The notes under the pieces were generated by a model. That model was not told the origin of the DNA. It made no database searches and worked only from the letters and a program-made list of their open reading frames with translations. The position numbers and the translations under genes were made by a program. DNA of 59,887 nucleotides, counting the filler, from Platydemus manokwari (lineage: Eukaryota), in NCBI GenBank assembly GCA_037951405.1. It is 4 parts of 4 records of this genome, joined end to end, with 100 filler letters (N's around TTAATTAATTAA, not from the genome) between each part and the next. Parts side by side here need not be neighbours in the genome. Positions count along the whole stretch, not along the records: positions 1 to 17,101 come from JBBMOY011121440.1; 3 more parts are not named here. The stretch is one strand, 5' to 3'. Below, piece by piece: positions 1,340-51,995 of the stretch; position 1 is the first letter of the stretch, and each line of letters opens with the position of its first letter.

Positions 1340-1908
1340 GGTTCAAATTGATGCACTGGCATCATTTTCCGTTAGCCGATAACGATTCGGTAAAGAAATC
1401 GTTGCTTGTGTCCACGACTTGTGCGATGACGAGCAAGCACACCAAGGGATATTGTGTTTTCACAGCGTGTTGAATCCATTCTCCACAAATCTGAACCTTT
1501 TCCATTGAGTGAAGATGCCTCTATAGCAGTGTAGAAGCATTCCATTTTCGCCCAAAAGTTGGTTTCACCAAACACAACTTAACGATCAAAACGCGGTGCG
1601 TTTCTGAGATCAACATTTCCATTTTTGAATTTGACATACCAATCACGAGAGGTTCTCTCAGCTATTTCACTTTCTCCATACACAGTACAAATGTCTTGAG
1701 CAGCTATTGAGGCTTAAGAACCTTGATTAAAGTCTAAAACATAGCGAGAAGCTTATTTTTCTCAACTTTACACTCTATTTTAATGATCTGAAAATTAACA
1801 AAAATTAACTCTAATAGAATACAAAACATCGATTTAAGTAGAACAAAATATTATCTTTCAAATGATTTCAAATATGCCTTCTGAAACTTTTTTGCCAACT
1901 TGATATTA
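1340..1908 (-). mobile_element. Degenerate mariner (Tc1/mariner) transposon, 5' half
   Basis: Minus strand begins TA+TATCAAGTTGGCAAAAAAG (~1906-1885), a mariner-type TIR. Translation across stops and frameshifts gives DFNQGS*ASIAAQDICTVYGESEIAERTSRDWYVKFKNGNVDLRNAPRFDR (HTH and PRSGRP-like motif), GKVQICGEWIQH (WVPHEL-like linker) and LARHRTSRGHKQRFLYRIVIG (just before the first catalytic D, TGDEKW motif). 3' part and right TIR not seen. Confidence 0.9.
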
Positions 1909-5085: not shown

Positions 5086-6399
5086 TTACGTATCAGGGAG
5101 ACCAAAATAAATGGAAAATTTAGATTAAATTGTAAAAATAATCGATTAAATGTCTGTTTGATCCAGATGTTGGTCATCAGTAGTCTTTGTCTGGGGGGGA
5201 ACCTGAAAATAATTATCAATAAAATGGAAAATAATTTACAAAAACGTACTTCATTCGAGCTTCCTTACGAGTCGTTAGGCGAGTGGTCCCTTGGCTTGCA
5301 TTGGAGATGTATTCATTCGACTCTAAAACAAATAATATCAAAATTAATATATAAAAAATTACTTTTTTGGTCAGCAACTTTTGTGCTTAGCTTATGTGTG
5401 ATTTCAGTAATCATTCTTTTTTATTACTCTATTCTGTGTTTGACTTTCGGGTGCTGATCCCATCTTGAGTGATTTTTTTGTGAATTGCGTAAAGAATTGT
5501 TATTATTGAGATTCAGAGTATTATTTTGGTTAATATAGCTTTGTAGATTCAAATTGTTGTTCAATAACTCAACAATTAGGTTAAGAAAAAAAACTAAATC
5601 AACAAAATATTACGTAACCTGCGCAGTTAATCCTTAATGAGCTAATTGAATATTGAATAATATAGATATCTGTACACAATTTCCGGAAGTTCTTGGTTAA
5701 TAAGCTCCATAAGGGTGTAAAACCTTTAATAGAGAATGGGTCTTTCTCTGTATATACGAAGAATATACGGGATAGATAATTTATGGTATTTTACAAAATC
5801 ATATATCATTGATTCTTTAAATTTGGTGTGATTTGGTAGTATACATATATTATGGTAAGGGCCATGTTTACGATATGTTTAATCAAAATTTGCTTTAGAC
5901 TTCGTATTGTCAATAAAAAACTTTCAATTAAACTCGTGGTTTCACTATTTTATAATGAGCAAGGTCTAATATGTTAATGGCCTGTTTTCACTTTTCAATT
6001 TACGTAGGAATTATCAAATTGCATTTTATTAAAATTTTTAAAAGAATAGATATTTTAAATGTTTATTATTTAATATTTTATTTAAATAATAGCAATTTTC
6101 CTCGTTATTATTTTCCACGCGAGTTATGATGTTGGATTTTATTTATGATTCTATTTCTTTTCTTCGGATAAATTTTACGTGAGTTCTGAATATTTGGAGC
6201 TTATTGTCTTTATAAGAAATTCATATTTTTTATTATTTTCTTATTAATCATTTTTATCTTCCACTTTAAAAATTAAAAATTATTATTTTTATTATATTTA
6301 CGAAGAAGGCAATAAAATCAATAATAAATAAACAACACAATAAATATAAGTCATTGTTTCATACAAGCTTTCCCATTGGTTTTCTCCAATTTTATGTCA

Positions 6400-8350
6400 T
6401 TATAAACTTTTTTGAAAATCATTTTCCAAAATTCTTAAAAATGAATGTCCAAAAATAACCAATAATTTAGAAAATAAATTGATAACTGTCTCTAATTCTA
6501 GCAGAGGTTTTTGATAACTGCTGATTTTGTGTGATCTCATGACAAAAACAAATTGGCCGAAAAATAAGTATATAAACAGATTCAATTTAGTAAATTGATA
6601 CTGAAAAAACTTAACTGAGAAGGAAACAAGAACAGATAAATAAAATACTAAAAAGGCTGAAAGTGTCTTATTAATTCTTGATAATGAGAAGTTGTGATTA
6701 ATTTTTTGGTTTTTTACGGCAATTTAACAGCGTTAATTCACATTCCCTCTTTCTAAACGGATATTTATTCAATAATTATCAAAGAAAATGTTTATTGAAA
6801 TTAAAGTAAATTAAATTATTATTGGTAAAATTGTCAATGATTTGAAACAGGATGACTTGATCATAGTAAGTTGAAATAGATAGAGTATCGGCATCGTCGT
6901 GATCACAATGGCTATAACAAGGATACAGATACTTTAAATTTAATATATTTTGAGATTTTGATATAAACATGCCGATAGTTTGACTTTCCTTATGCATATT
7001 AGATATAAAAATACCGGAATTGTTTTTACTATTTGTTTCAAATAACTTCAGAGTTAATAAAAATTCAAATAATGCTTAACATTTTGTGATAGTTGATTTG
7101 GTAGTGGAGATTGTTTGGCAAGTATTGTCTGTCAATGCACAGATTAAATATTATTAGGATTAATTTATATTTCAATTATTGCACTATGCCTATTAAAATT
7201 ATATTTGGCAGCTAGATCTTTGTGTGCATGTTTCATGGTTCCTGAGGGTGTGAAAGGTAAGTGTGATGATTGTATTCTTGTTCTTTCTGGCTACAGGTTT
7301 TATTATTTCAAATGTTAAATATAGCAAAGTTGTATCTGACTGCATCATAAAAATAATGACCATTCTTTTTTACTAAAATAACGAATTTTTATAAGATTTA
7401 TTTATAAAAACATGATAAATTTGAAAGAATAACAAAAGGTACACAAGTAGATTAGCAATCAATCCGAAATGAATGAAGAATAGTTGTGAAGAATCTCATT
7501 GATTAAATATGGAATAATTAAAAATAATATAACTAATGCATTAATAGCCAAAGAAACAAACTATTTAATCTTAAATTTAAATAAACATTAACTATTTCGC
7601 TTACATCTTGATTTTTCTCTGCTTTAATGGTAAATAATATAATTTCTTAGTCTGAAATATACCTTTACGAATTAGTTATATAGCTTCTTATGACTGACAA
7701 TTTGACAAAGCCTTGACAAAAATATTTTTTAAAAACATTATCAAAGAATATTTCAAATTCAGATTTTTTACCTGAGGTACAAAATCAATTAACGAGCTAC
7801 TTATACTCAATTTTCTATGTTGGCTTGGGAGTCAACATATTTTCTCTAATATTCTGAACTTTATTTCTCATTTTTATCTGTGAACTCGGATTATTTATCA
7901 TTCATATTTATTGATTTATTTTCACTTTTAATCTTAAATTATTATTGTTTTCATATTTATTTATTTTTATCAATTTTAATTATATATTAATATTCATTTT
8001 CTCTCACAATTAAATAGTATATTCAATTAAACAGTGTATTCAAATTCAATTGTTCATCATTAAACATAATTGTTATCATTTTCTCATACTTATTCAATTA
8101 TTTGTAATTATATGGTTCGGTTTAATTTGATTAAATTCTGCAATTTTTCATCCAAACTTTGATATCATCATCTATATCCTTCCGTTGATACTTAGAGCCT
8201 ATCTTATTAAATATATCGGTAAACAAACCTTTTTATTATTATCAATCTGATCATGAATGATTGGTTTTCAATCGAACTTATTGAAAAACTTGTCTAAGAA
8301 CTCTTGCTACTATCAAATTGAATTAAAGGCAGATAAATTAATTTGCTGAA
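6400..8350 (-). mobile_element. Degraded, internally deleted Ty3/Gypsy element (gag and integrase relics)
   Basis: ~8330-8180 reads LDKFFNKFD*KPIIHDQIDNNKKVCLPIYLIR*AL (gag-like, similar to the LPxYLxGxA motif at ~45100). ~7270-7080 reads SGTMKHAHKDLAAKYNFNRHSAIIE...KQSPLPNQL, resembling the integrase HHCC region. Confidence 0.4.
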
Positions 8351-8499
8351 ATTATTGTTAGCATTTAAGCTTTCATTATTATATTATCGTATATATCTAT
8401 TATTTTTGCATTTTTCTTTTCATTATTATCTAAGATGTGATCATTAATATTTAAAATTTTGTTTCGGTGCTCTTATTGTGATTTATTTCATTATCTATT

Positions 8500-9250
8500 C
8501 TTGGTCATATTAAATTAATAAAATTTAGCCATTTTTCAAACTAGTTCCAATTTAGAAAAAAAAATTATTAAATTACAATTTGGTCATTTGAATTTTTTAT
8601 GATTATTAATATACTAATACCGAAATGGTGCCAGATTTTCCTGAAATTTAATTATACAATTTGACACTAAGCAAAGTTCTCAACTAATTAATAAACTTGT
8701 TTATAAATAGTTAAAATATAGCACAGTTAAACAATAAAAAATTAGCTATATAGACAACGCTTGACTTAGGTTAGATGTTGTATCAAAACGAAGGTTGGTT
8801 TAATAAATAAAATTTGAAAATCGAATATAAAACAAATGAAGGTTGTAATTTTAATCCAAACTTAATCTGATCTTTTCACAAAATTAGTTTTTCAATTGTA
8901 ATAAATGATATTTAAAATATAAATAATCAGATAACTAAAAAATTTTTGAAAATATGTAATGAAATTGATTGAGTTTCCTGAAAAATATTATTAATAAACG
9001 CAAATGCTCAATATATACAATGTGCTATTGTTTACTATTAGATGCTTCAGGTAAAGGATTCAAGTGTGTCCAACTAAGTGGGAAGACATAATTGTGAAAT
9101 AAGAGACAGATGTATTGACAGTCTTATCAATTTAGAATAACTACACATCTATAGAAATAGCTGTGAATGCATTAAATATTTTTTTCGGAAAATGTAATTG
9201 ATATATGGTATACAATTAAATTTTATAAATAACAATAGTGTTTCGCTTGG
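8500..9250 (+). mobile_element. Degraded Ty3/Gypsy pol relic (RT and RNase H)
   Basis: Motifs in canonical order: FGH.EF (~8580), RNGARF (~8622), ISYIDN (YxDD-like, ~8741), LLDASGKGFKCV (RNase H DAS..G, ~9035) and NYTSIEIA (~9139). Many stops and frameshifts. Confidence 0.6.
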
Positions 9251-11099
9251 AAAATAATTATTGATAATTCTTGTAACGAAAATTTTCTAATTTCATAATC
9301 ATAAATTTTTTCTAAGGTATTATTTACCATATTTATTTATAGTAACTTTTGTTGCTATTCTATTTTTAGACATGACGTAGCTTCTATTTATAGATTTAAG
9401 TTAAATTTTGTGTCCTTCGTCTAACATTGTGGGTCTAAACAAATGTTAAAAATAATTTGTTGTATTAAAACATTTTTAATTTTTTAATAAATTTTTTTGA
9501 GATGCTTCATTTATAAATTTTAATCTTTTAGATGCTTTTTGTGTTTTTATCTATTCATTAATGTTTAATCTTACTATTTATTTTATTGTTATCTATTTAG
9601 ACTTCTAAAAAAATTTTAAATATTATTTATTTTTACTTTCTAAATTAGTGTATCACTATGCCACTATATGCATTTGTATCTTATTTTTTGTCATAAATTG
9701 TTTGCCATGAATACTTATCGTATTTATGTGCCTTACTATGAAGTGTATGGACTTCACAAGGGTAATGATTAGTAAGTGCAATAAATGATATAATTATCAA
9801 TATTGAATTAATTTGATGAAAATCAAAATTATGATCAGATGGAAAAATAATATAAGCCAACTTTGTAGTGAAAGAAAAGCGAAGGAGTATAAAGTTTGAA
9901 ATATGTTAAATGTTTCGTACGAATTTTGACTAGTTTATGATAGGATAATAATTCATTTTATGGAAATATTACAACATTAATTACTATGAAAATATAATTA
10001 TTCATATTGGTATTATTCATCCGTGTTTTGAGTTTGCAGTGAATATTGTTTTTTCGTCGTTAAAGATTTATTCTTAAATAGTACATACTGTTGCGTTTAT
10101 TTGTGCGATTTTTTCCGATTTCGTGTCTGCTTTTATAGCATTTCTATGCATGCCTTGCTTATCTGTGATTGATAGGCTTTTTAAATAATAATTTATTAAT
10201 AATTAATTTATTTTTTAGTCTTGGCTACATATTGGTTACTAAGGTAGGCTGCCTAGTAGCCCCTCGTTACGTTAATTATCTTCCCATAAAACTAATTATT
10301 TGCAACAATTATTCTACTAGTATATGTGTTAAATAAATTTACTACCATTCTCAGATGTGAATGTTGCAAGTCGATTTCATAATGACTAATTTAAGTTTCT
10401 AGCTATCACCAAGCACAAAAATAATTTCTTGATTTTTATTGTTACCCTGTATATTAACTTCCAAAATGAATGCAAACAGAATTATTATTCACTCCATATG
10501 AATTATTTTATTTATTAATTACTATTATTATAGTTATATTATTAATATGTAAATGTTGTTTTATTTTAATCATCCTTTACTTATTATTATCCTTAATATT
10601 ATCCATTGTACTTTATTATTTTCCCCTGCATTTCCACAGCAATAACATGCATAAAAAATTAGACAAAAAGATTTATTAGGTGCTGAAATAAACAATGTAT
10701 AATGCCTGTTTGCAACCAACAAATTAAAGATAAAAATCATTTCAAATAAAATGTTAAATCTCAAAAATATTTATTAATTTATTGGAAATAATTAGGGTTT
10801 ATAATTTTAGCAACCGATTTTCTCTTTTTGGCGGAATTCTATATAAGAAATTTGAATCCTGAATTTGAAATGTTGGGTCACCTCTTAGCAGTATAACATA
10901 AAATAAAACTCATTATGCTTGAAATACAAATCTACAATGTGACTAAATGGAGGGATGTGACAGACTAAGTTTATTAGAATGCAATAATCCTTATTTTTGC
11001 AACCAGGTCTTCAATTTTGTTATAACTATGGTTTAAAAAATATTTATCATTAAGACAATATTTATTTATCAAATTTTTAACATCTTCATTTTCAAAATA

Positions 11100-11580
11100 T
11101 CAAAAATACTGAAAAAATGTGATTTAACACGTTGTAATGATGGTTATAATGGTCAAAAACTCCATCATATTCATTTTCAAACAATAATTGTTCTTGATTT
11201 CTATGTACATAAACGATTTTTCCATTATTGCTGGACAAACAGGCATTGTGAAATGCCAGGATGGCTATTGGGAGTATTACTGGCATTCTGCGCATTTGCA
11301 TTTTTGGTTGATTCTTGGTAGATATTTTCAAATTACGATTACCTTCTAATAATAATTTTAAATAATCAGCATTAGTTGGATCAAATATTATAACTTCACC
11401 AGCGGCAACATCTTTTTTACAAGGTCATCGAGTCTTAAAAATAAAGTCTTTCCGAAATTAGGTTCTCCATCGAAGATGATACTGTTGACAGGAATTTTAG
11501 GGATTTTCGCAAGAAATTTATTAGTGATCATATTCAACGACAGTGTACAATAAACTCATTATTATCAATAAACCAATTAA
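11100..11580 (-). pseudogene. NS1: Endogenous parvovirus/densovirus-like NS1 SF3 helicase relic (EVE)
   Basis: Minus translation KIPKIPVNSIIFDGEPNFGKTLF (Walker A, 11468-11445); then after a 1-nt frameshift DVAAGEVIIFDPTNADYLKLLLEGNRNLKISTKNQPKMQMRRMPVI (Walker B region, B' KLLLEG at 11358-11341, motif C), and a downstream WKNRL (Arg-finger-like). Order and residues fit parvoviral SF3 helicases. Confidence 0.8.
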
Positions 11581-11699
11581 CATAACTAACAAGTTTCTTA
11601 AACATAGCATCAATAGGAAGACATAACTAAGATTTATTATAATAAAAACTGATTAAATAATATAATAATAAGAACTGTTTAAATAAAGTTTCAATAGGT

Positions 11700-12750
11700 A
11701 CTCCATGCAATTCCTATTGGTCAATAATAATCATCCGGTTGGCGCTGTATTAAGTGGGACGGTTGGAAAATTACCATCCATACCCGTTGAAGCCTTTGTC
11801 GTATGGCATTTATTTTTCTGATATGCAGTTGGAGTGGCCATATTTATATTATCTTCCATCGTTGGACACACATGTTTTATTACAATCTTCTTTGCAGTCG
11901 AATCAAATTCATTTTACGTAGATCAGTTGTGCGTTTTCCAAGTAATTGTCCTTGAGCATTGTTCATGGTACTAACAGATGACTGGCCATTTACGATAGAA
12001 TTCAAATGAACATTTTATTTCCTAAGAAAATGTATATGTTAATTGAATTGGAAAACCATTAGCACCAACGTTTGTAATAGCTTTAAACAAAACATTGACA
12101 TGGGATTATGCTCACTAATATCGGACAATTGTAATAAATCATGAAAATCATGCCATTTAGATAAATAATCATAATCTACTTTATTGGCATTTGAATGCCA
12201 TCCAAATTTACCATCATTTCCATTTATGTACGTAAATTTGCAATTTGGCAATCATCTATAAAATCCCAATTATCATAGTAAGGCTTTGTACATCTAATTT
12301 TTGTAGGAAAAGGATGATAATTGCCTTTCAAATTATATATTCTGAAGCCATAAGGACCAGCTAAAACTGATCGAAAAGGCTTGAATCTCTTGTAATTAAA
12401 AAAATCAAATCTAAATAAATAAGAGTTAAATTTGTCTTAATAATATCGTATTGGTAAAAATCCGTTTCTTTGATTAACCATTTATCTAACTTTTCTTGTT
12501 AGTAAATAAAATTGACTAGTTTCCACTTCTAATCCTGTCATTACTATAGCACTTTTGATGTTTTTTTACAATTCAAAACTTACTGAATGATGTTTGATTC
12601 CAATAATTTTTCACATGTTTCCATAAAGATTTAGAATATACTTTATGATACATGTCCGCATGAACTGCATTTGATATTTCTAATAATCGTGTTAATATTA
12701 TTTTAAAGAATTTTCTTCAGTGAAGCATTGAAATGTGTTTATTATCTTGA
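11700..12750 (-). pseudogene. Probable parvovirus-like capsid (VP) relic adjoining the NS1 relic
   Basis: Frameshifted coding-like, GC-enriched segment: YHKVYSKSLWKHVKNYWNQ / IKSAIVMTGLEVETSQFYLLTRKV / ETDFYQYDIIKTNLTLIYLD / GPYGFRIYNLKGNYHPFPT / LPNCKFTYINGNDGKFGWH...HDLLQLSDISEHNPMSMF, followed by AATAAA (~11638-11633). Capsid identity is inferred from beta-strand pattern and adjacency to NS1. Confidence 0.45.
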
Positions 12751-15549
12751 AAATATTAATTACTATATGATATTTGAAAAGAATTTTCAAAAGATATTAC
12801 TCGTTATACTGATTTTTATTAAAATTGATAGTTAAAAATTTTGTAACCAAAAGGAATTTAATTTATTATTTCGAAACTGTTACATTAACTTTTTATCAGA
12901 ATTCTATTTTTAACGTTACAATTTTATCAGAAAATGTTGCTTTGATTCAATATTTAACTATTTTATGGTTATTGACAAGTACTTGCTACAGAAATAAACG
13001 ACAGATAAAAATATTGTTACATTATCTAAGTATACTAATATGCTACTGCACTATTTATAGCTTAAATCAACCTCTTGAGTTCTAATGGCCCTCCGGTAGT
13101 AATTTAGCTTTAATGTGATATTTATTCAACTCAACATTCAACTTATATGGAGACAACAAATATGATGTCAAATTTAACTTGGTACTTTCTTAATTCTACT
13201 GAATTTTAATAACAATTCAATTGCTTTAAGTTCAGCCTCTACTTTTATGGCACTTAAATATCAAATAAAAACGTAATGAATGATATATATTAATGCGTAT
13301 TCTTGAAATTGATGCGGAATATAATCGAATTCGTAGCTTCTTCTAAGTGCGAGATTGGTAATGATTTCTTAATGAGGTAAGGCTAAATTAATATTGTCTT
13401 CGTTTTTATCTTGCAATATAATAATTAATATTTATCAAATTATTGTGCTTTTATTAATAAAAATATTTTTGCACAAAATTATTATAATGTTCAATTTTAT
13501 TATTCATACTTTATTCTATTGGGTACATCATAAAAATAGGCAAACTACTTTGGAAATATGTTTTTTATCTTTGTCGCTGTTTAACTTTCAGGTGCTGATC
13601 CTGATATGTATTTATAACTCGTTTCCAGGACGTGATTGTTTGACGATTTAATTTTCTGTAAAATATTGTGATCATTAATTATAATTTTGACATTTAGCGT
13701 TAGTGAATATGTTGGCTTTGTATTTTATTAAATTAATAATATTTAATTTATAAATAGAATGCCAACAAATATATAAATAAAAGCGATATTTAACTCTAAT
13801 GAAAAATAATGAATAATATTTAATTAAAGATAACAATTAATATTACAATCCACATAGGCAAAAAAGCAATAATTAATGATTAGCTGAAACAATAACTAGG
13901 ATTTACGTAAGTTATATATGTGTCTGTTCCTATAATTAAATTTGAGTCTTCTGTGCTTTGACCTCAAAAGCCATTATTGATGAGTAACTTAATGAGGATT
14001 GGGTATATATGTACCAACAATTCCACTGAAATAGGTAAACGCAGTTAATTTAAGTTAAAAACATAAATTCATTAAGATAATATCAATTACATAAGTCATT
14101 TTAACAAACTTGAATCAGGTTAGATTAATATAAATGAACATAGGTGGCGTTGTATAGTGTTATATTTTCAATAGATTTGTTTTGTTTAAATATTACAATT
14201 CATTGTAATCGATTTATTTTCCTTGTAATTGGATTTCTTAGAATAATTTTCTTACGATTAACTAGATGTTTTAAACTAATTCTCTTTCGTCATGTCTGAA
14301 ATTTCCGTATCTGTTTTCGATCTCTCTTGCTATTTTTAGTGTTTTATCTCATCTTTCTATTTTAATATTTTAATAATTCTATTTTTAAAAAATTGCATTT
14401 ATTATTGTTTAATATTATTTCTGTCCAGGGTAGGCTTCTGATATTTAACAAATATCTTAACAATTCTACTCATTAAAATCAAAAATATTATTATTAAAAT
14501 TAAAAGTAACACAAATACGATATACATATTTCTCTATGTGTCAATTTATTGGTACTCCGTAAGAAATTGACTGTTTTAAGCAATTCTCAACAACAATCGT
14601 CTACGATTATTTAATGTTTCGAAAATTTTGAAGATGATAATAATCAAATTCAGTACAATATTTATTAAAAATTTTTGTGTTGGTTGATTTTACTAGTTTA
14701 CATTGGTCCTGGAGGTCTTCAGTAGCTCTTACAAGGACTAAGCTTCCGGAATACATACTGAAGTTATTTAAAAATTATTATTATTCAATTGATTGTTACA
14801 ACAGGGATTTGGATTAACAGTAATGTGTTGATTTGCATTGGGTTTTGGTAATTGAGGCTATAAGGCTTTGTGGCTTGCTGATTTCTGTGTTGCGCATTTA
14901 TAGGAATTGGTGAAGTGATTGTGGGTAAATTTGATTGGAATATTCAGAGAGATTGGAATTGTTTTTGGTGCTATCCTCAACAATAATACTTTATTAGAAC
15001 GTTATTTTAAACCAAACATTTTTTATTATTGTCAGTAATATTCGAAATCCGATAATGCTCTGGAATTCGTTCATCCAGGTGGATGATATGAGGAAAATTA
15101 AAATTTAAATAAATTTAAATGGAACAATTTGAAATAATTTTATAAATAAGCTATTTAAAAATCTTTTAATTTTCAATGTTTTAATAAATTGAAATTCTAA
15201 TTGATTATTTGAATATTGATTATGAAATAATTTTTGATATTTTTAATATTTATATTTTAATATTTATATTCCTGATTAAAGCTTTGTTGTAAATATTTGA
15301 ATTTGTTTAAAAATCTTTTTAAAATTAAATTTTTCGAAAAATTAAAAAAATTCTCCAAGATTAAGTATAATGAATTTCAAAATTTAATTGAAGCAGTTAC
15401 TACTAACAAAGTCAAATTATCTAATTGGAATTGTTCTGGAAGGAGTGAAATAACAAATCATATCAATTTTTGCAATATAATTGCAGATTAGGGTTAGTCA
15501 ATAATAAGAATCGATTTAAGTTCGACTTCTGGAAGATGTCAGCTAGAGT

Positions 15550-16250
15550 TGTGGTTGAATTGTTCCATATATTGTTTTATTTGTTTACCTGAATACTTAT
15601 AATAATATTTGGATTGAAGATCAATATTGATTTAAATATCTATCAAAATTAAAAAAAATATGTACAACACGCCATTTTTGTTTTATTAATACCACAAAGG
15701 AATGCCGTCCATCTTTAGCTATTTTATGTCTAAATATTTAACTTCCTTAAAATCACGAAATACATTACATAGATCACCTGGCTGTTATAATATCATTACA
15801 TCATTGAAACAATAAGTTATTAATAAAAAGTGACCATATTTTGCAATGTTTGATGATAATATTCCGTGAGTGCATTTAATCAATCATTTAAGGTATGTAT
15901 GATGTAAATTTATTCTGGACAGCTTAACGAGTTATTTAATTCTATAAAATATGCAAATTACTTAATATTTTTAATGATATTAGAAGTCAGTTGAAATTCA
16001 GCATCTATTGTCTTGATTATCAGAATGTGAAATACCATTAAATATCTTTTTATCCATCAAACCAATTCAGAAAAACTTTAAGATAATTGGTGAATCTTGT
16101 CGATTTTGTTCGTAAAATGTTGTTTATATTATAAGATTGGTAACGAAACCATAATAAAACTGAAATATCTTTATCAACTTGTTGAACCATATTTGTCTGT
16201 TATCTTTGCCTATACAACGGATTAAACATTTTGTTGTCAACTAAAGAACA
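15550..16250 (-). mobile_element. Degraded Ty3/Gypsy reverse transcriptase relic
   Basis: Minus strand CFNDVMIL (YxDD-like, ~15810) followed by C..FRDFKEVKYL(G)HKIAKDG-like (~15760-15710), typical of the RT C-terminal motifs. Confidence 0.5.
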
Positions 16251-16548
16251 ACTATGTTAATTTATTACAATTTCCAAAATGTTTTCATTCTAATACTTCA
16301 ATTATTATTTTCATTATAATAATAGTCATAATAAATATAAATATATATTTTGAAAACACTATCAAACTACTGAATATTAAAATAAGCGCTCACGTGACTA
16401 CATATATTCGTGTGTGTAATTTGTTAATGTTATTTTTATTTGTTGACTAGAAATTTTATTTGTTGATATTGAAATAATTTATTTTAGAATTTTAATATGA
16501 ATATGTAATCATCTACCATATAATTCTGATTTGTTTTTATACATTAAG

Positions 16549-16699
16549 GCGATTCTAGAAGTATTTTGATCAGAGATAGGTCAGTTTATTTCACTACTGA
16601 AGATCATAAACCTAAAAATCCAGATGAAAAAAATCGAATAGAAAGAGCTGGTGGTAGTGTTTTATCAGAACGAATCAATGGTTGCCTTGGAGTTTCGAG
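16549..16699 (+). CDS. Internal exon of a protein phosphatase 2C (PPM1A/B-like)
   Basis: AG/GT-bounded 151-bp exon encoding (G)[50 protein letters not shown], containing the PP2C GDSR, DHKP..E..RI..AGG and RING.L.VSR motifs. No other catalytic exons found in the window. Confidence 0.93.
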
Positions 16700-17101
16700 G
16701 TATGGAATAATTATTAAAAAAATCAGTTGTGATTTTATCAAATAAGAATGTCAAAATAAAGAAATATCTTTGAGATTAAAGGAAAACAGATATGATTTTA
16801 AGATTATATGAGTATAAATAAAAACTCGAATTATATTATATCGATATTTCATTTGTAGAAGTTACAAATATTCTGAGTAGTGTTCCATTATCCAGTACAT
16901 TTAAACAATGGATTATATGTTCGATATTATGTTTCTCAATGACTCATTAAAATTTAACGGTTTAACTTCTTTTAACATTTGAAAATCTAAAATCTTATAC
17001 GATTGCAATTAATTGTAGTAAATTAACCGTAAAAGTAAATATTTGATGTTTTGATAATAATGTAATTTAAAAAGAATATATAAGTATAATAATAACGAAT
17101 A

Positions 17102-17201
17102 NNNNNNNNNNNNNNNNNNNNNNNNNNNNNNNNNNNNNNNNNNNNTTAATTAATTAANNNNNNNNNNNNNNNNNNNNNNNNNNNNNNNNNNNNNNNNNNN
17201 N
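17102..17201. other. Assembly spacer N44-TTAATTAATTAA-N44
   Basis: The same 100-bp layout occurs three times; TTAATTAATTAA places stop codons in all six frames. Confidence 0.97.
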
Positions 17202-23529: not shown

Positions 23530-24567
23530 TCACAAATGTCTAAGTTCTCGTTCAAGACCATACATCATGGCTTTTAAATCTTTCAATTGAGCTGATAAAT
23601 GATTTGATTTTGTTGCAGTGTGTTTTACTTCACGAAGGATGGCAAGATCAAGATCTTGGGGCATGAGATTGGGCCCATTTGAAGAGATTTGGTCGCCAAG
23701 ACTTAAGGTTACCTGAATAAGATAAGTCCATTAAAGATCCAATGATAATGATTGACAAGTGACAAAAACGATATAACTAAACAAAACTCCACACAATACC
23801 TATGAAGATCTAGAAACCACCAATGCATCACCATGATGCATCTAAAGCGTATATTATAACAAAATCTTTTAAAAGCATGCAAAAGCAAATCATTTACAAA
23901 TTACCGTATATAATTGCTTTTCCAGAGTCTTCAATTTCTTTCTTAAATTTGCAATATCGGTTTGGAAACCTTGAACTTCAAGATTTCGTCGACGTTCGAG
24001 ATCTTTGTATCGTTGATTCATCATTTGTAATCGATTGTTGATTTTCATTGATCTATTTTTATAAATATCCTTAGTAGCATCGCCTTCTTCTCGAATTTGA
24101 GACAATTCATTCTCCATTTCAATAACCTTTTTATAAAGACACAATTCAATGGTGATGGAGAAATATGTTATTGGTTCATGATTACTTGTTCACGATACAT
24201 TTCAGACATTTTCTGTTGCTGTTCAAGCTGATATTCCAAATTATTAATTGTATTCTTATATTGGGCTTCTTTCTGTTCTTTCATTTGTCCAGTCCATTCA
24301 TTCCAAGCTTTACCTTGCAAACTTGTTGGATCAGTGATGATCAGTTTATTATTTGGATCTATTATTATTTAATAAGCTGATAATTGACAATAATTTAATA
24401 ATTCAATCAATCTACTGCCGCTTCCTATTGATGATTCTTTGACCTTTAATCTTCTAAACAATGAATCTTTCTCTGATATCCAATGTTTCTCATTTTCTCG
24501 ATATTTACTTCGTTGAGAAAGAAAATCTTTCGTATTTTCATATAGTAGTTCCTGGGTTCGTTTCAAT
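23530..24567 (-). CDS. CCDC77: Coiled-coil domain-containing protein 77, last four exons
   Basis: Exons 24567-24416, 24358-24186, 24126-23905 and 23712-23530 (TGA), all GT-AG and phase-compatible. Encodes TQELLYENTKDFL...EKHWISEKD...MSEMYREQVIEMENELSQIREEG...RYKDLERRRNLEVQGFQTDIANLRKKLK...DLAILREV...LKAMMYGLERELRHL*, closely matching the CCDC77 C-terminal half. 5' exons not found before the spacer at 29560. Confidence 0.93.
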
Positions 24568-29659: not shown

Positions 29660-30896
29660 GCAAAACTCACGTGAAAATTGTTCACATTTCAAATTGAAAT
29701 TTAAGATAAAAATTGGAAAATATGAAATAAATTTCATATCCTAGGTTAGAAATATGAAATTTTAGAATTCTTGAATAAATGGGCGAAATTTAACTGAAAA
29801 ATGTTTGTATTTCAAATTCGAAATAAAACAAATTGGATAAAAATCAATAAATTTATATACTAAGCAAGATAACATGAAATTTTAGAACTCAGGGGAATAA
29901 TGGCAAAAGTCTACATGAAAACATTGGCAAAACTCACGTGAAATTTTTTCACATTTCAAATTGAAATTTAAGATAAAAATTGGAAAATATTAAATAAATT
30001 TCAAATCCTAGGCTAGAAATATGAAATTTTAGAATTTTTGAAAAAATGGGCAAAACTCACGTGAAAAATGTTCACATTTGAAATTGGAAAGAAAAAAAAT
30101 TGGATAAAAATCAATGAATTTCATATCCTCTGCTAGAAATATAAACTTTTAGAATTCATGAAAAGATGGGTAAAATTCACGTGAATAATGTTCACATTTC
30201 AAATTGAAATTTAAGATAAAAATTGGAAAATATTAAATAAATTTCATATCCTAGGTTAGAAATATGAAGTTTTAGAATTCTTCAATAAATGGGCAAAACT
30301 GAACTGAAAATATTTGTATTTCAAATTCGAAAGTAAAAAAATTGGATAAAAATCAATAAATTTATATACTTAGCAAGAAAACATGAAATTTTAAAATTCA
30401 TGAAATCATGGGCAAAACTCATGTGAAAATTGTTCACATTTCAAATTGAAATTTAAGATAAAAATTGGAAAATTTGAAATAAATTTCAAATCCTAGGCTA
30501 GAAATATGAAATTTTAGAATTCTTGAAAAAATTGGCCAAACTCAACTGAAAAATGTTCACATTTTAAATTCGAAAGAAAAAACGTGAAAAACCAATTAAT
30601 TTCATATCCTAGGCAAGAAAACATGAAATTTTAGAATTCATGAAAAAATGGGCAAAAGTCAGGTGAAAAATATCCACATTGCAAATTCAAATTTAAGATA
30701 ATAATTGGAAAATATGAAATAAATTTCATATCCTAGGCAATAACTTTTAGAATTCATGAAAAATTGTGCAAAACTCACTTGAAAAATGTTCACATTTGAA
30801 ATTCGAAAGAAAAAAAAGGAAAATATTAAATAAATTTCATATCCTAGGCTAGAAATATGAAATTTTAGAATTTTTGAGAAAATGGGCAAAACTCAA
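29660..30896. repeat. Tandem satellite, ~120-bp monomer with alternating A/B subtypes
   Basis: GGGCAAAACTCACGTGAAAA-like anchor recurs near 29660, 29782, 29901/29926, 30048, 30168, 30291, 30411, 30533, 30650, 30767 and 30884; the ATTTCATATCCTAGG...TGAAATTTTAGAATT core recurs in each unit. The array runs into the spacer. Confidence 0.95.
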
Positions 30897-32110: not shown

Positions 32111-35100
32111 TCATCTAAATTTGTCTTCGTCTGATTCTATTCCATGCCCGTTGGCACGACCAGCTCTGATTTCGAGAATTTGTTTTTCAACGTATTTAAT
32201 TTTATCCTTTACATCGAGAAAATTAAAATGAGTTTGCCTGATAACGGATTCGAGGATCTTAAATTGTGAAACATAATCAATAAAGATAAATGTTATAAAT
32301 TTTATGCCATACTTTTACTCTTTCTTCAGGAGGTAACTTTTCCAGACCAACGGGAATAAGGGAAGGATGTAATCTTTGAAAGGGGCGACCGGAAGGTCTA
32401 TGAGTGCTATTGACAAAACTGAGATTATTATTATCTATTGCAGCTGATTGATTTATTGCCGGGTTATCAATATTAGGAACCATAATTGATCCTGCAGTTG
32501 TTTCACCATTGCTATCTTGATAGCCACCATCTGCGCTACTCGTACTCATGGAATTCCGATTTTTACGACGAGATTTAGGCCTCCTACCTTTGTGGCTATG
32601 TGAGGTCGGTGTACCCGTTGCTAATGGTATCATTGATGATGGTCGAATATCAATGGGTAATACAGTCGGTAATTGGAAAGCACTATCATCTTGTGATGTT
32701 TGTGAATCATCTTCGAATTGCATTGAATTATCATCAATGGTGTTCTGAAATAAATCAATTCTCACATAACTCTTTCATATGGCAAAAATCCAATGTACGC
32801 GATATGATATAATAGAATAATTTTTAAACCATAAATAACTTAAGAATGAGTGTGTTGCTTGAATAAAAGATGAAATAATGGGATAATTCATACCACAAAA
32901 CCTTAATATACCAACTTTTTTAAAATAAACAGGCAAAATTTAATTTATTGATTAAATATTTAGAACCAATGAAATCATAATCAAATAAAAAATTAATCCA
33001 TAAAGCATGACTTGAAATAGTGTTCCAAAAGACAAGTTTATCACCTTACCTGATCAGAAATAGTTCTCAACGACCTCGTCACCCGACGTCCGTGTGCAGA
33101 CCCACTATGTTGTGAAGAAGTGCTTTCAATTTCGATAATATCTGTTCGATTTTCTCTTTGCTTTGCATGTAGAGTTCCACCACTCGGTGGTTTTTTATCT
33201 GGTCGAAATAATGGTTTTCTACCTCGTTTATTTCCGGTTTTACCCGTGTTTGGTCTTACAACAGCTGGAGGCGATTTTTCTGAATCTTCATTGGGAGAAA
33301 TATAAAACAGGGATTGATCTTGTTCAGATCTGAATGGCAAAGTTGAAGCATCACTAAGAGAATCGTTTGAAAATGAAGGACTTCTGATTCCTAAAATCAT
33401 GTTAATAATATTTAAGTGACGTGCTTCGCTCACTTTCGGATTGAAAATAGTCATCTTTAATATCTTCACTTTCATCTTTCAACGTGATGTTTTCATTTTT
33501 CTGAATTATGGCGCAAGTATTGGGACAAAAATTAGAATCACTGGGTTGTTGATTGGAGGTTTCAACGGTTAACTCAAAACATGGGGATGAAATTTTTATT
33601 TCTTCTTTAAATTCCACTTCAAACATTTGTTGGGTTTTAATGGTCTCCTCGTGCTTTAAACGTTTAGGTGGCATGGACATCTAATTGATAAAAATAAAAT
33701 AATAAACAACCAGCCAAAAGGTAAATAATTCCATTCAATAACGTTTAAAGGTTAATAAAGTAATTTACAATTAATTAAGTTGACTGAATAGTTTAATAAT
33801 TACTTTCTATAATTCACACTCATACACTACCATCATTATATTTTGCGTAATCTTTTGCCTTGTTTATATAAACAAACGATAAAGCGCATAATTGAAGAAT
33901 TATTTATACATAATATAGAGTCATGCTTTATAGAGAAATAAATATAAAGAAATTATTTTTAAATAATATGTTTTTACATTATCATAATTAAATCAATCAA
34001 ATACCGTTTATTATTTTTTAAACGAATATATTCAAATTTTTTTATCAGTTTTCATTAAATAATTTCAAATAAATTCTCATTTGCAATTTTGAATATTGGT
34101 CTGATATAAACAATTTTTTTTAATTAATATTTTTACATTTGCATAATAAAAAGATAATTTATTTTAAACCCAAATAATATTTATATCAATGTTCCAGTAT
34201 TGTAATTGATGAATTAATACAACAAATAATAATCTTTCATAATAAATTCTCAGTTAATATAATTCAATCAATCATCGATGGTTGATATTTATTGATTTTA
34301 ATTCTTTTGTAAGATTAACAGTGATAATTTTGTGATTATTGATTATTGGAATCCGATCAATAAATAAAAATGATTTCATTGAATTTGATAAAATATAAAT
34401 GAAAATAATATTTATAAATTTGAGAAAATTTCCCATTATCAACGATGTAAATATTATATTTCCCATCTTTAGGGATTATCATCAAAAAACTATTAAACAA
34501 ATGTTATAATCATTAAATTTAAAATAATTATAAATATTTATCACAATTTACAAAGACAGATTGTAAGATAATCACCTTGTCACCGACTTTATACAAATTG
34601 AGAGAAGCAATGAATCTTGATTCAGGCAAAATTGGTAGCTTTTTTATTGAAGAATTTTCAATATCAGCGAAACAAACACTTTTTGATCGTCTTCGTTTGA
34701 GATTGGCTAAAAATGATCAACCAAATGTTCTGTATAAATTCAAATATAAAATTACTTGATTTGACAGATTTTATTTCTGAATGAACAACAGTCACAGGTT
34801 CTGGGTTTGGTTCAAGATTATTTTCATTAGTTTCCACTGATAATAATATATTCAATATATACACACATATAGATATATATATATATTGTTGATATCAATT
34901 AAATTAAATACATTAATTAATTAAAAATCAAATTGAAATAGAACTTATGATTGAGATTCTTGTCAAAACAATATCCCAATAAAGGCACATTTAACAATGA
35001 TTTTTCAAATATTATTAATAATTCAAATATAAATATGAATTATAATTAATATATTGTTGTTGTTAGAGGTCTAGGTTAGAATTAATTCGATCACAGATTA

Positions 35101-38100
35101 ATATTGGTATAATAATGAGGAATTAATCAGGATAGACATTAGAGACAAATTCAGAATTTAACTCAAAAATCATTCAACAGCCATTGATTTATGATAAATG
35201 TTTGAATATCAACATTAATTTTACACTGCACATTTTGACATATTGATTTATTGGAAAAATAAATGAAAAACAAAAGTATTGATAAATGATTGTGATTCAT
35301 TGAGCAGAGATATGAATGGGTTTATTAAATATGATTAAAATCAAATACAAATGAGTATTGAAATATGAATAAAAATGAAATAATCACTTGGTTCAATCAA
35401 GTTTTCCGATGGAATAATTGGATCCCGATTCTGACATTCCGAATGAGATGGTTCGATCGGTTCATTGACTGTCAGATCAGTAAATGATTCATTTGGATTA
35501 ATATTTATTATTTCTGATGTCTGTTCTGTATCAGAAATCGTCGGTTTCTGTCGACATGATGATGAACAAGTAGATTGATTATCCATTCCAGTGTCGGTAA
35601 TAATTCCAAGAATACGTTCAGGAGAAATAATTTCATCATGTCGACTATTCCAACCAATATAATGAACTTTATAAAATGTTGAACTATCGATTTCAGATTT
35701 CAAATCATTGTTGACACTGCTTGCCGAATCAGCATTTGATAATGTATCCAAACTCATTCTTTGATGTTTCGATGTGGTTTTCGAATCGATTGATTGGGAT
35801 TTTAAGGATTTATTTTCTGGGGAATGTTGTTGAATGATTTTAGCTTTATAAACCTTCTTGTCACCATAAGCAACAGATACAATAGTTCCCGGTGATAATC
35901 GATTAACAGAAGTTGTTACAATCGATTTACATTCACTATCTCCATCAACTGCTCGATCGAATACTGGTTTAGGACTACTGGAACATTGGCTAAGCTGTGA
36001 TGTGTCTTCAATGAGACTGTTTGTACCAATTTCATCACCACTAACACCAATATCTGTTGGCCTTTCACAGACTGATTGTGATGACACAGAATGTGCTTCG
36101 ATAGGTTTTCTGTTAAATTGTCTGACGTATTCCCTTCGTTCACGAGCTGAAAGAAGTGGTCTGGCTTTTTGATTAATATTTATCGGTTTGTCAGCGTGTT
36201 TCCTGTTTCTAGATTGTTCAAAAGTCCCAAGTTTCTTTTTCATGTCAACATACGGATAAATAAACCTAATAAATCATTAATTAACTGGTTAATATTTTTA
36301 TTAGTTTGTACCAAATTTTAGGAAAAAAATCTCACTTTTTATATAGAGTTTGCAATCTCTGATAATTATCACTGCTGCAATGGGGCAAATTCAACAAATA
36401 ATAAATGTGTGGCCATCGAACGCTAGTATTAACTTTCTGAAAGCCACCGAAATCTTTGACAAACTCATATAACTGATAGATGTCAACATCAGTTCCTTGA
36501 ATTTCTAAACCATGATTGATTGGACTACCTTTATCTTCCCAAAACCCATAAAATCTTGCTACCCATTCATCCTTGGCATTTTGATACTCTTGATCGGATG
36601 AATCTGATTTATCGTGATCAGGATTTCTTTCATCACATGATGATGAATCTAAGGAACTGAGACTATTAGTCAATGATGAATGCAATCGAGATTTAACAGA
36701 TTTCATATTTGTTCTATCGCTACTATCAAAAACTGGATATTCTGCACTGTAAAGTAATTTATCAGCATCCCAAAGATCAGGGAATATCTTTGCGTCGAGA
36801 AATAATAAGCATTTTTCCACATAAATATTCGACTCCGGATCTGATTCTTTATGCTTGATAAGCATATCCCTTTTAACAACCAAATCCAAATCCCTCTTAT
36901 ATGATACATACCTGTATGATATATTCCAGTGACTTATATTGATAATAAAAACAATCATTACCAAAAATTATCAACGAATGATTTCACAACACATTGTGTG
37001 CTTTTCACATCAGGATTGCTTTCGTCAATACATGATGACGGTGAGACAATAAGTCCCACAAATGGTTTACTTTTTCTATTTAATTTATCATTAGATAATG
37101 AAGCCAGTTTTCTAATAACTCTATTGACAATTACCAAACAACCAATATGATATTTTGTATTGGCATGTTTCTTAAATTTGGTCCTTAAATTATTAATAAT
37201 AATCAATCAAATTATTATCAGTTATATAATTAATTATAAACATATTTATAACATCAGGTTGGATATAAGGGAGAATACGATTGAAACTTAATGAAAAATC
37301 GCATTTTGATCATAAATTACAAAAAACAGGTTTCGACAAAACACCAGGTCAAATAATCTAGTTATAAATATCATAATGTATAGCAATCCATTAGATAAAT
37401 ATTCCCAATTATTAACTATAAACATATATCAATGTCAAATAAGAAAAATATTTCTTGTGTTGAAAGTGCAATGAAAAATCAAACAAAAATCCCAACAACA
37501 ACAATCAATGAACACTATTTGTTATTGATTTAAGGTCAATTATTAAATTAAAATCTACTAAATTGACACCAAATGTTCATGAATTTATGAAGTATTGGAA
37601 ATGAAATACTCCAGGACTGTCGAACCAAATGAATCCATATCAATTTGTCGATTTGAACTTTAAAAGGAAATTCTTGAATATTTTTAATTATAATTGCTTA
37701 TGGCAAATTATCATCGAAAAAGCTGCGATAATCATTGATATCACAAATATAAACTATAAATTATCGGTTATATTCAAACTATTTATTTGATTTTAAACAC
37801 ATTTAAATGAATTAAGATACTCCGAAAAATCAAATCCTCAAGTACTTGACACGTATTCCCGGATTAATTGAAAGAGAAACATCAACTGAAGCATTAGAAT
37901 ATTTACTTAGAAAATGTAATTTATTGTGATAAACATTATTTTCAGAAAAAACAAAACAATTATTCACAAATGAAATTTGAAAAGAAAATAATGAATTACT
38001 TAAATTATAAATGAAAATCTATTCATAAATTTAAAATTAAACTAAAACGATTAGAAAATTAAGAAAAATTACACTTTGTTGATGGGTGTTTTATTAACTT

Positions 38101-38850
38101 CATCTGATGTTTTCGCTGTCAGGCTACTACCAGCAGTTCCAACTGATGGGGACGATGTATGCGTTTGTTGTCTACGAGTCTTATTACTCGAGACTGTTGT
38201 TAAAGACTCTTCACTGCAAGACTTTTGATCATCATTATCGAATTCATCGTCTTCAGCACTACATACATAATATATAATATAAATAGATAATTTATGAGTA
38301 TAAATACTCGGATTTATCTTTTAATCGTTTGTCATAAATGACAGCTTTGGTAAAGTGCTCTGGATTAGTTAAAGGATGTTGATCTAAAGACTATTTAGAT
38401 GTAAACTTAAAAACGATGAATATATTGTCATTACTTCACTCTCTTTATAATGTCGGTCACCTTTCAATACTAATTGATTGCGACGTAACTTCCCAGTATC
38501 ACCATCATTAAAAACTTGTAAAAATCGTAATTTAATTTAAAATAAAATAATTACATACCGACGTGATAGATACTATTATCCATAATTTTTAAAATCACAC
38601 CGTTAAGAACATCATGATGTATTTTAACTTGAACTTTATTATTTGCAGAAATATTACCAATTATATCTTCGGCATTTACTTTGATTGTTTTTTTATTATT
38701 AACTAACTGAATCCGACATAAAATTATCTTATCAACACTATTAACTATAGCTTCACAAAAAGCACCGCGAAATTTAGCACTTACAGCTGTCCCCATAGGA
38801 ATACACAATTTATCAAGATTATCTTCTAAAACTAAGTCTCTAGCGCTCAT
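32111..38850 (-). CDS. ARID4: AT-rich interactive domain protein 4 (ARID4A/B, RBBP1-like), complete 13-exon gene, 1231 aa
   Basis: Exons 38850-38559, 38514-38435, 38390-38308, 38258-38073, 37183-36962, 36911-36336, 36265-35388, 34836-34756, 34706-34576, 33680-33434, 33390-33050, 32744-32313 and 32257-32111 sum to 3696 nt and stay in frame. Domains: Tudor (GTAVSAKFRGAFCEA...VFNDGD..KLRR..L.LKGDRHY..SESLDQHPLTNPEHF), RBB1NT/PWWP, ARID (FWEDKGSPIN...DIYQLYEFVKDFGGFQKV...W...LQTLYKKFIYPY), chromo-barrel (VHYIGWNSRHDE) and a C-terminal R2-like coil (PPEERVKILE...). A few acceptors could shift slightly. Confidence 0.95.
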
Positions 38851-39866
38851 AATTATTAAATAAATTAATCATAAAGAATTAATTTGTATTTTATATAACA
38901 ATAATTGCTTTTTAAAACAAATCCAGTATTCATTATACTTCTTTATTTAAATAAACTCATCTTTTATTTTTTTTAAATATTATAGAATTTTATTTATTAT
39001 TTTTATTTCAAAGTGTTAGCTTAAATAATAAAATATAAAATATATAAGCCTTTAAAAATTATGAACAAAGAAAATAATATCTATTTTAAGATTCTCAAAT
39101 TTGATTTTAATTATTGTTATGATTGACAAATTTTTAGAATTTTTTAAATCAGAATAAATATACAAATATAATAGTAATATAATCTAAAATAAATTATTTG
39201 GTATCATAGTTGATATTTCATTAAGTTACCCAGAGTGATAAATTTGTTCTTCTGTAAATTTTAAGATTATTATCGCCATATATGAAGAGATACATGTCAA
39301 GGTTTATTTTTAATATTTTTTAAAAAGCTTTTTGGAACTTATTTTAAGAGACTGGAATCAATTGAAAAATTGTATTACAAATAATGAAAGACTCTCACAA
39401 AGACACAAGTGAATACAGAGAGGAATATAAAAGTCGTTGATAATTCAAATTTTTTTATTAAGAATAACGTGAGCGATGTTAAATAGGCTCTCATCTTTGC
39501 TTGAGATTTGTTCTATCTCGGCTGTGATTGTTCATGAAAGCAGATTAATATCAGTTAATGATATGTATATCAAAAAGATTACGGGGATAAATATGTATAT
39601 TTTATCTTAATATTTTAAATATATTATTATTTGGCACTAAGAGAACGTGCTATCATTAGATGTGTTGATTTCTATTTCATAAGCTGCGTCATCTATACTT
39701 ATGTAAATTTACAGATATATGACAATTTACTGATACAATGATAGACTATTAGAACCCCTTTATAAATTATTAGTCCAGAAATAGTTTTTTAATTTTAATT
39801 TCATTAATTAGTGTTGATAGTTATCAATTCACAAATAGAATTGGTGCACATTTAGAATATGCAACG

Positions 39867-40864
39867 AACACCAAGATAAGCCAACGGCACCAGGGTTATA
39901 AAAGAACCAAGGCTTAAACGAGATGATTTCGGTGAAGAAAAATATAAAAAGACACAGAACAAAGGACAAACATACACGAAGAGTCTATAAAAGAAATTGC
40001 CTCTCGTGAGCAGCTACCAGTCTTTCATGGTCAGTAACTTTCAATATGTCTTATTCTTTTGTGTGATCATTCTAATGACCGACCTTTTATGCTCGTTGTT
40101 TCGGTGTCTGTCTCATCTTAAGGATGTTGATCTAATTGTGAATTGATTATTGACTTTGTTTTGGACGTCTGATTTTAGAATACCACTATTGACAAATAGA
40201 TTTTAAAGAGTAACTGGTGATTATATTTACATTTTGAATATTTAGTGATATTGGTTATCATACATTTGTATCATGGTGTATGGAATTGTATGTGGGTTTG
40301 CACAATAATAAATGAGAAAATCAATCCATTTGTTGGAAAGTGCATTTCAACTTATAGATTTTAAACTCATCTTTAAACATACTTATTTAATCTTCTTCAA
40401 TATTATTAAACTCATTTCAATCATAATGATAATGTTTAGTTCTGTTGTAATGATAAAATCCAGTTTAGTATAATAATATTTATATAATAATTATAATAAT
40501 TTTTAGTCTGAAACTTATGTAACGAATAATAATCGACTCTAAATACCGAAGTTAAAATTGAAGATAAAGATAACAATCATAAAGACTATTTGTCGAAAAA
40601 TCAAGTGAAATTCACACATAATCAAAGTTGCCTAACAAAAAGGTTTGTAGATACTCGTGAGATCCAACTTCCTTTATATGGTTATCACTTGCGCTCACTT
40701 AATGTCTCATGGTTTTACTTCTCGCGAGAGTCAAAATCTTTTATAGACTTCTCATGCATGTTTGTCTGTTGTCTTGTGTCTTTTTATAATTTTCTTCACC
40801 GAAACCATCTGGTTTACGCCTAGGTTCTTTTATAACCCTGGTGCCATTGGCTTGTCTTAGTGTT
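39867..40864. repeat. 144-bp inverted repeat pair (39867-40010 and 40721-40864) around a ~710-bp spacer
   Basis: Manual ungapped alignment of the left arm with the reverse complement of the right arm gives about 20 mismatches in 144 nt (~86%). No clear TSD. Confidence 0.9.
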
Positions 40865-51659: not shown

Positions 51660-51995
51660 ACAATGATAATAAATATAATTAATAATAATATCAATGATAA
51701 TAAATATTATTAATAATGCTGTCAGTGATAATAAATATTATTAATAATACTGTCAATGATAATAAATATTATTAATAATAATATCAATGATAATAAATAT
51801 TATTAATAATATCGATGATAATAAATATTATTAATAATACTGTCAATTATAATAAATATTATTAATAATAATATCAATAATAATAAATATCGTTAATAAT
51901 AATATCAATCATAATAAATATTATTTATATCGATGATAATAAATATTATTAATAATACTGTCAATGATAATAAACATTATTAACAATAATATTAA
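51660..51995. repeat. AT-rich minisatellite, ~28-31-bp unit
   Basis: About 11 copies of AATGATAATAAATATTATTAATAAT(ACTGTC/AATATC). Confidence 0.92.

Follow-up and report, generated by a model that had tools for sequence, protein, structure and literature searches.

Classified monosense parvoviruses all carry the nonstructural gene (NS) on the left and the capsid gene (VP) on the right, as stated in PMC11357303. A first-pass annotation of a locus in the genome of Platydemus manokwari, which had given this same rule correctly, proposed that a capsid-like gene and a poly(A) signal lie upstream of a 5'-truncated NS1 on the same strand. This locus raises the question of whether the upstream gene represents a capsid gene and, if so, by which route the two genes came to stand in this arrangement: their shared sense agrees with the rule, whereas their order is reversed if the capsid call holds. 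We addressed this question in a stretch of 59,887 nucleotides (hereafter, the window), which consists of 4 parts of 4 records of assembly GCA_037951405.1, joined end to end with filler between them.

A decayed element in gene-poor host DNA

The window is AT-rich eukaryotic DNA with a GC content of 20–34% per kilobase. N gaps are located at 17102, 29560, and 47490, each of them 100 nt in length with a central TTAATTAATTAA spacer; the gap at 17102 is the nearest to the element studied here, with none in or near the element and none at a distance of less than 4 kb. The element is contiguous with host chromosomal DNA, as intron-bearing genes and transposon remnants are found in the same window, and its surroundings are gene-poor, with the element's own 2 segments being the only stop-free segments between 1.7 and 16.5 kb that pass the coding score.

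Among the host genes of the window, an ARID4-like gene (32277–38868, minus strand) was recognized by its ARID, Tudor-knot, and RBB1NT domains, and the relative of its ARID exon, P0004, is 72% identical. A PP2C phosphatase exon at 16548–16745 (plus strand, E = 6e-15) represents the identified host gene closest to the element, and 3 coiled-coil exons of a host gene are located at 23539–24359 (minus strand). Host introns are short (44–86 nt, with a GC content of 0.14–0.24, n = 7). Furthermore, the window contains a Mariner/Mos1-type transposase remnant (1399–1704, minus strand; HTH_48 with E = 7e-8 for 1582–1704); a satellite with subunits of approximately 120 nt (240–267 nt higher order) together with a 31-nt AT-rich minisatellite (29660–30895 and 51660–52005); a MITE-like inverted repeat of 147 nt (39867–40013 and 40718–40864, 86% complementary and 704 nt apart); and a dispersed repeat in inverted orientation (5364–5517 and 43195–43352, 79–87%). 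An ORF at 48570–48893 (minus strand) has, by eye, the look of a Tc1-type helix-turn-helix, with no Pfam match at E 0.05.

Within this animal-like host genome, a decayed, parvovirus-derived element extends over approximately 12760–10975 on the minus strand. Coding potential was assessed using a codon-likelihood frame-path model trained on host exons, with 200 dinucleotide shuffles serving as the null. The upstream kilobase (12760–11690), which had been described as about 1 kb of frameshifted coding-like sequence on the minus strand, bears out this description with a coding z-score of 3.69, reached by 0/200 shuffles, compared to −2.04 on the plus strand. The NS1 side (11630–10980, minus strand) yielded a z-score of 4.47 (0/200 shuffles), the flanks yielded 0.39 (13800–12770) and 0.76 (10900–9900), and 8 background tiles, taken on both strands, ranged from −1.39 to 1.76. 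The coding signal is, hence, limited to 12760–10980 on the minus strand, with the plus strand and the flanks being devoid of it.

The decay of the element is evident from 13 frame changes along the best path through 12800–10950 and from stops in every frame. Stop-poor frames persist at 12251–11883 (2 stops in 123 codons compared to 10.1 expected), 12586–12227 (3 in 120 codons, 10.9 expected), and 12105–11734 (4 in 124 codons, 8.8 expected). Today, the element functions neither as a virus nor as a protein. A search of the window for further copies of its parts was negative (best blastn E of 0.032; no tblastn match), no strong inverted repeat was found at the element, and no terminal hairpin was apparent, with none of the 80-nt windows at the junction or the ends being among the 6 most stable in 13200–10880.

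A direct repeat of 25 nt (80% identical, AT-rich), which is one of 38 chance-level families, has one copy at the 5' end of the element (12744–12768) and the other approximately 200 nt past its 3' end (10758–10782). This pair possibly reflects an old target-site duplication or an AT-rich chance similarity.

A brevidensovirus-like NS1 helicase remnant

The downstream gene is confirmed at the motif level as a brevidensovirus-like NS1 helicase that is devoid of its N-terminal half. It comprises the pre-helicase helices and Walker A (11468) at 11430–11626 (minus strand, in two frames), followed by motifs B' and C and an arginine-finger stretch at 11190–11424 (minus strand), in which a degenerate Walker B lies beside a deletion. 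A tentative, probable C-terminal remnant at 10975–11189 (minus strand) leads to a double stop overlapping an AATAAA (10975); this assignment follows from the frame path and the coding signal, with no homology shown for this stretch.

In all six frames of the window, the Walker A pattern and the B'-type pattern occur solely at 11468 and 11358, respectively, and the pair scores 52 compared to 21.2 ± 3.3 for shuffles, 0/500 of which reached this score. The B' site reads KLLLEG, identical at 6/6 positions to the NS1 of Aedes densoviruses, and is accompanied by the motifs F.[DE]NN..I[IV]H at 11572 and I[ML][EQ][KR]..[ML]YI at 11228. The overall order (11572 motif, Walker A, KLLLEG, motif C region, 11228 motif) was read against the Aedes densovirus and EmuDNV NS1 sequences printed in PMC6880638 (supplement 3), on which the reference spacings were counted by hand. 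The first of these motifs precedes the Walker A lysine by 122 nt, compared to 114 nt in Aedes densovirus NS1, whereas the lysine-to-lysine distance from Walker A to B' is 92 nt compared to 156 nt (52 codons) in the reference NS1, from which it follows that approximately 64 nt (about 21 codons) were lost between the two motifs.

The likeness to Aedes brevidensovirus NS1 (P27454 and Q90185; PMC6880638) thus concerns the pre-helicase motif, the spacing to Walker A, KLLLEG, motif C, and the arginine-finger region, whereas the element differs by the absence of the endonuclease half, the approximately 21 codons missing after Walker A, and a low overall identity. This resemblance begins at approximately 11626–11572, further upstream than Walker A; the initial view of a 5'-truncated NS1 is confirmed at the motif level. 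An HUH endonuclease N-terminal to the helicase was not found, with HUH chains not being significant; this absence is expected in a truncated fossil, and because of it the element is not classed as a virus genome.

Capsid-like motifs in the upstream gene

The upstream gene probably derives from a capsid gene, as judged from motif-level similarity. A decayed VP-like pseudogene of approximately 340 codons, with frames assigned by codon-position bias, occupies 11731–12760 (minus strand) and contains about 5 frame changes and several in-frame stops. Its 5' boundary is approximate, and its Thr/Pro-rich tail ends at a TGA (11733–11731). The length fits that of the VPs of EmuDNV from Echinococcus multilocularis (321 aa, PMC6880638) and AdSDV (377 aa, PMC10267136), the latter being reported to be the smallest and to resemble PstDV most closely (PMC10267136).

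Chapparvovirus and invertebrate endogenous VPs printed in the supplement of PMC6631224 served as the capsid reference. Nine capsid-like motifs follow the printed chapparvovirus order: I.NA (12677), TG..V...Q.Y (12538), L..W with the next strand (12489), IY.L (12340), WD...I..LR (12268), N...F.WH (12218), D.[LI].KW (12170), P...F.LK (12104), and K.I.....NG..I (12084). While 7 of the 9 are unique in six frames of the window, the patterns were written post hoc.

The strongest indication of a capsid is a match at 12200–12268 (minus strand), spanning one frame change, to the VP block that is most conserved among chapparvoviruses. In a frameshift-tolerant test, which was designed after the by-eye match, this site obtained a score of 34, reached by 0/500 and then 1/4000 shuffles as well as by 1/1000 scrambled motifs. 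No site on either strand of the window scores higher, although the runner-up, a chance site at +19455, reaches 33, and the result was weaker under stiffer penalties (4/1500 and 14/1500 shuffles). We take this block to correspond to strands F–G; likewise, the strand letters B to I on the capsid motifs are our own assignment, following the general fold. DISEHNP (12122), initially taken by eye as strand F, was dropped in favor of this block.

A chain of 4 capsid motifs was matched by 3/500 shuffles and 2/103 tiles, with motifs 1, 2, and the last being placed away from their by-eye positions. The first chain test, employing 3 short motifs without frameshifts, was negative (60/300 shuffles, 15/103 tiles). 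Capsid motifs fail on the NS1 part (140/500 and 174/500 shuffles), and helicase motifs fail on the upstream part; capsid and NS1 could not be told apart by amino-acid propensities.

A hairpin resembling strand H, the HI loop, and strand I is located at 11980–12107 (minus strand) and contains strands in the structural model with a pLDDT of 42. It is identical to the Latrodectus ChPV.3 VP at 9/36 positions in an ungapped hand count, which alone is not significant; the alignment in PMC6631224 marks the DE and HI loops. Compared to the printed capsids, the EF and GH loops would be considerably shorter here, owing either to deletion or to a capsid of the small penstyl/brevi type. In comparison with chapparvovirus/ichthamaparvovirus and spider endogenous VPs (PMC6631224), the motif order, some spacings, the small size of the capsid, and the Thr/Pro-rich tail are shared, whereas the similarity is confined to the motif level and the EF and GH loops differ in length.

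Neither gene was recovered by library searches. For the upstream pieces, no relevant match was obtained in Pfam, PDB sequences, a collection of 1.84 billion representatives, a set of 5.8 billion sequences, or the Atlas, and for the NS1 piece, no match above threshold was obtained in the same libraries. In Pfam, the best results for 12 pieces and frames were TMC (0.4), Adeno_knob (0.033), nSTAND_NTPase4 (0.0058), and, as a weak match to the 11430–11626 stretch of NS1, PPV_E1_C (E = 0.24), with none above threshold, and the six frames of 6001–17100 returned PP2C only. Among PDB sequences, the only similarity was that of a P-loop to mitoribosomal mS29 (E 0.006). Within the 5.8 billion set, 0/58 candidates for the NS1 piece matched and there was no candidate for the upstream piece; one frame (12105–11095) had 0 matches among the 1.84 billion representatives, and the exact look-up of ORFs returned 0/10. 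The phage collection and Rfam (9000–15000) yielded no relevant match. A degenerate NS1 pattern led to 2 loci in GTDB genomes, both of which were rejected as ordinary prokaryotic genes and provided no reference virus.

The first-pass annotation had named a single jelly-roll fold as the check on capsid identity. Ordered capsid-like motifs were found, against one negative motif test, and a profile or fold match was not: 2 single-sequence AlphaFold models were uninformative (pLDDT of 41.7 and 36.0), and for the first of them, neither Foldseek against viral and PDB structures (no E <0.001) nor VIA (no Z >5.0) returned a match. The best reading, and at the motif level a probable one, is a capsid-like gene that precedes a 5'-truncated NS1 on the same strand; the missing library match, the negative motif test, the design of the significant test after a by-eye match, the short EF and GH loops, and the uninformative models stand against it. 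On balance, the whole appears to be a non-functional endogenous parvoviral element of a hamaparvovirus-like virus, combining a brevidensovirus-like NS1 with a small chapparvovirus-like capsid.

The junction between the two genes

The exact VP/NS1 boundary lies between 11730 and 11627. The junction itself (11627–11730, minus strand) is AT-rich (GC content of 0.21) and holds a 26-nt tandem duplication at 11635–11686. An AATAAA, previously reported here as a poly(A) signal, is present at 11638, where it overlaps the end of this duplication, but its proposed role was rejected on the grounds of the duplication and of its chance-level occurrence: the minus strand of the window contains 195 copies (3.3 per kb), and the hexamer is found in 28% of 5915 tiles of 110 nt, in 40% of 1450 AT-rich tiles, and in 18% of 5000 shuffled junction sequences. 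The junction does not fold into a hairpin better than shuffles (z = 0.51). TATA boxes at 13059 and 11848 (minus strand) were rejected as chance occurrences.

Precedents for the gene order

This gene order is less exceptional than the first-pass annotation assumed, as precedents are described for EmuDNV and EllLut.1 (PMC6880638, PMC6232428). The EmuDNV loci are reported to be mostly head-to-tail concatemers, and in contig 0221, a VP (6665–7630) with an AATAAA (7629) is followed by an ITR (7668–7969) and a truncated NS1 (7969–8895), a pattern that recurs (PMC6880638). Similarly, the Platydemus element is chromosomal and, if the capsid call holds, consists of a capsid gene of approximately 1 kb followed on the same strand by a 5'-truncated, brevidensovirus/IHHNV-like NS1. 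However, EmuDNV keeps its ITR and forms arrays of young, near-intact units, whereas the Platydemus element occurs as one heavily decayed copy without a hairpin. Since there is neither a second copy nor a hairpin, the element is not an array, although it works like an EmuDNV junction if the capsid call holds; the single copy and the missing ITR set it apart from EmuDNV.

In EllLut.1, an amdoparvovirus-derived element of a mole vole, VP residues 59–600 lie upstream of NS (PMC6232428). While this is likewise a germ-line element with long capsid homology upstream of an NS ORF, it belongs to the vertebrate Parvovirinae, has VP also downstream of NS, and involves LINE/SINE sequences and an assembly gap. 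Chapparvovirus-type genomes are ordered NS-NP-VP (PMC6631224), and the available text of PMC13055364, PMC5013282, and PMC12287923 holds nothing further on gene order. Moreover, a bocavirus episome is described as head-to-tail circular DNA that keeps terminal sequence (PMC3125170), and circular copy DNA is known for IHHNV (PMC8507497). Such circles are a substrate whose opening would yield a permuted order, but, unlike the element, they are extrachromosomal.

Origin of the arrangement

A decayed NS1 helicase, a decayed coding sequence upstream of it on the same strand, the absence of a hairpin, and the presence of one copy per part are established here. As their best explanation, we moderately favor a hairpin-less, circularly permuted genome unit with a head-to-tail joint, which was integrated and subsequently decayed. 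During infection of a germ-line cell, a head-to-tail joint would have formed between the capsid end of the genome and a point inside NS1, at the cost of the two hairpins, the endonuclease, and the left promoter. The circle formed in this way, or a single unit cut from a dimer, would then have opened close to the natural NS1/VP boundary, and host end-joining would have inserted it into gene-poor DNA, after which neutral decay would have introduced stops, small indels, the 26-nt duplication, and the internal NS1 deletion. The VP start and the NS1 end, which form the two ends of the element, adjoin each other in a normal monosense genome, and it is for this reason that the element reads as a circular permutation; its ends would be normal neighbors because the circle was opened near the NS1/VP boundary. 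No ITR remnant or repeat unit recording the joint directly was found at the element. A concatemer or circularized intermediate with deleted hairpins and endonuclease had already been proposed; the absence of hairpins and endonuclease is borne out, whereas a tandem concatemer is not, each part being present once.

An origin from RNA, which we regard as unlikely, would have involved a host retrotransposon that copied NS1 mRNA from its 3' end, stopped early, switched to capsid mRNA, and integrated the chimera, or the co-insertion of two fragments or segments that had been copied separately. The absence of a hairpin at the junction and the ends fits such a course, as do the 5' truncation of NS1, which seems to reach its stop with the AATAAA at 10975, and a capsid part that seems complete to its own stop. 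Furthermore, an mRNA-derived parvoviral element, EllLut.2, has been described (PMC6232428), EmuDNV has separate NS and VP poly(A) signals (PMC6880638), chapparvoviruses have two poly(A) signals, and a bipartite brevihamaparvovirus exists (PMC10267136). However, neither signal is followed by a poly(A) tract, and a clear target-site duplication is missing, with just the 80%-identical, AT-rich 25-nt pair being present.

It is distinctly unlikely that the element has retained the normal order, with the upstream kilobase encoding the NS1 N-terminus (HUH domain and linker), possibly overlapping NS2, and the AT-rich stretch lying within NS1. An HUH-like HIHFL at 12038, located in a frame that contains 2 stops over 123 codons, at a place where two stop-poor frames overlap, would be compatible with this, and the distance to Walker A of approximately 415 codons is within the range reported for NS1. 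In addition, an LN..Y triplet at 11682 resembles Aedes NS1 just upstream of the helicase, so that NS1 may start at approximately 11700, in which case the AATAAA at 11638 would fall inside NS1. However, the window contains 11 instances of the HUH pattern, and the HIHFL lies in a different frame from the capsid-like one, disfavored by GC3 (0.33 compared to 0.16) and log-likelihood (−4.7 compared to 1.9). LN..Y has 36 copies in the window, and its frame at 11682 is likewise disfavored by codon-position bias. The HUH chain was not significant (60/300 and 120/500 shuffles) and scored higher on the wrong strand (40 compared to 35), whereas the capsid block is far above shuffles in the same segment. 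A match of the upstream segment to the HUH endonuclease, which the first-pass annotation had listed as refuting its proposal, was thus not obtained.

Quite improbable is an upstream kilobase unrelated to the NS1 piece, whether it be a pseudogene of the host, a host gene spliced at short introns, or the remains of a transposon. In favor of this, the databases gave the segment no identity whatsoever, introns of the host are as short as 44–86 nt, decayed transposons occur in the window, and a 40-nt candidate intron (GTAAGT...TAG) at 12583 coincides with a frame change. However, 12600–11400 contains no host-like intron (GT[AG][AT] donor, 35–99 nt, GC content ≤0.24), the 40-nt candidate being borderline with a GC content of 0.25; as the breaks in this region fit no other intron, a spliced host gene is unlikely. 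Further arguments against this explanation are the lack of a Pfam family, the strand shared with NS1, the similar decay, and the capsid motif result.

We consider it very improbable that the capsid-first order is native. The element would then be the fossil of an undescribed parvovirus-like lineage from a little-studied invertebrate host, with the gene for a very compact capsid of short EF and GH loops natively ahead of a helicase-only replication gene, the latter's own promoter near 11848, and possibly a circular or segmented genome. Each part being present once, the missing ITR, and outer ends that coincide with gene ends would agree with such an ancestor, as would the TATAAATAT box at 11848 (minus strand), which is the EmuDNV NS1 promoter motif, and the description of EmuDNV NS1 as being without a recognized N-terminal domain (PMC6880638). 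Yet this 9-mer occurs 21 times in the window, the described rearranged elements of ordinary viruses give the same order, and the rule for classified monosense parvoviruses (PMC11357303) speaks against it. In the literature searched, with most subscription journals outside its coverage, we found no such virus, no natively reversed order, and no rearranged hamaparvoviral elements. The first-pass suggestion of a virus-like element with a different genome architecture has nothing positive in its support.

Finally, an assembly artefact joining two loci at the tandem duplication is highly improbable: the assembly contains N gaps and there is a short tandem repeat at the junction, but there is no N within 4 kb, the window holds no other copy of either side, and both sides share one strand and a similar decay.

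Implications

As the sequence is dead, present in a single copy, and preceded by published examples of the gene order, the surprise that it holds is limited. Nevertheless, if the capsid call holds, the hairpin-less, circularly permuted unit favored here would document, in the germ line, a parvovirus joint of the head-to-tail type without hairpins, in the form of a single clean circular permutation, and would bear on whether endogenous parvoviruses originate from circles, concatemers, or retroposed mRNA. Moreover, the element points to a hamaparvovirus-like lineage whose divergence left both genes without a match among 1.84 billion representatives (one frame searched), and the capsid of this lineage may have unusually short loops.
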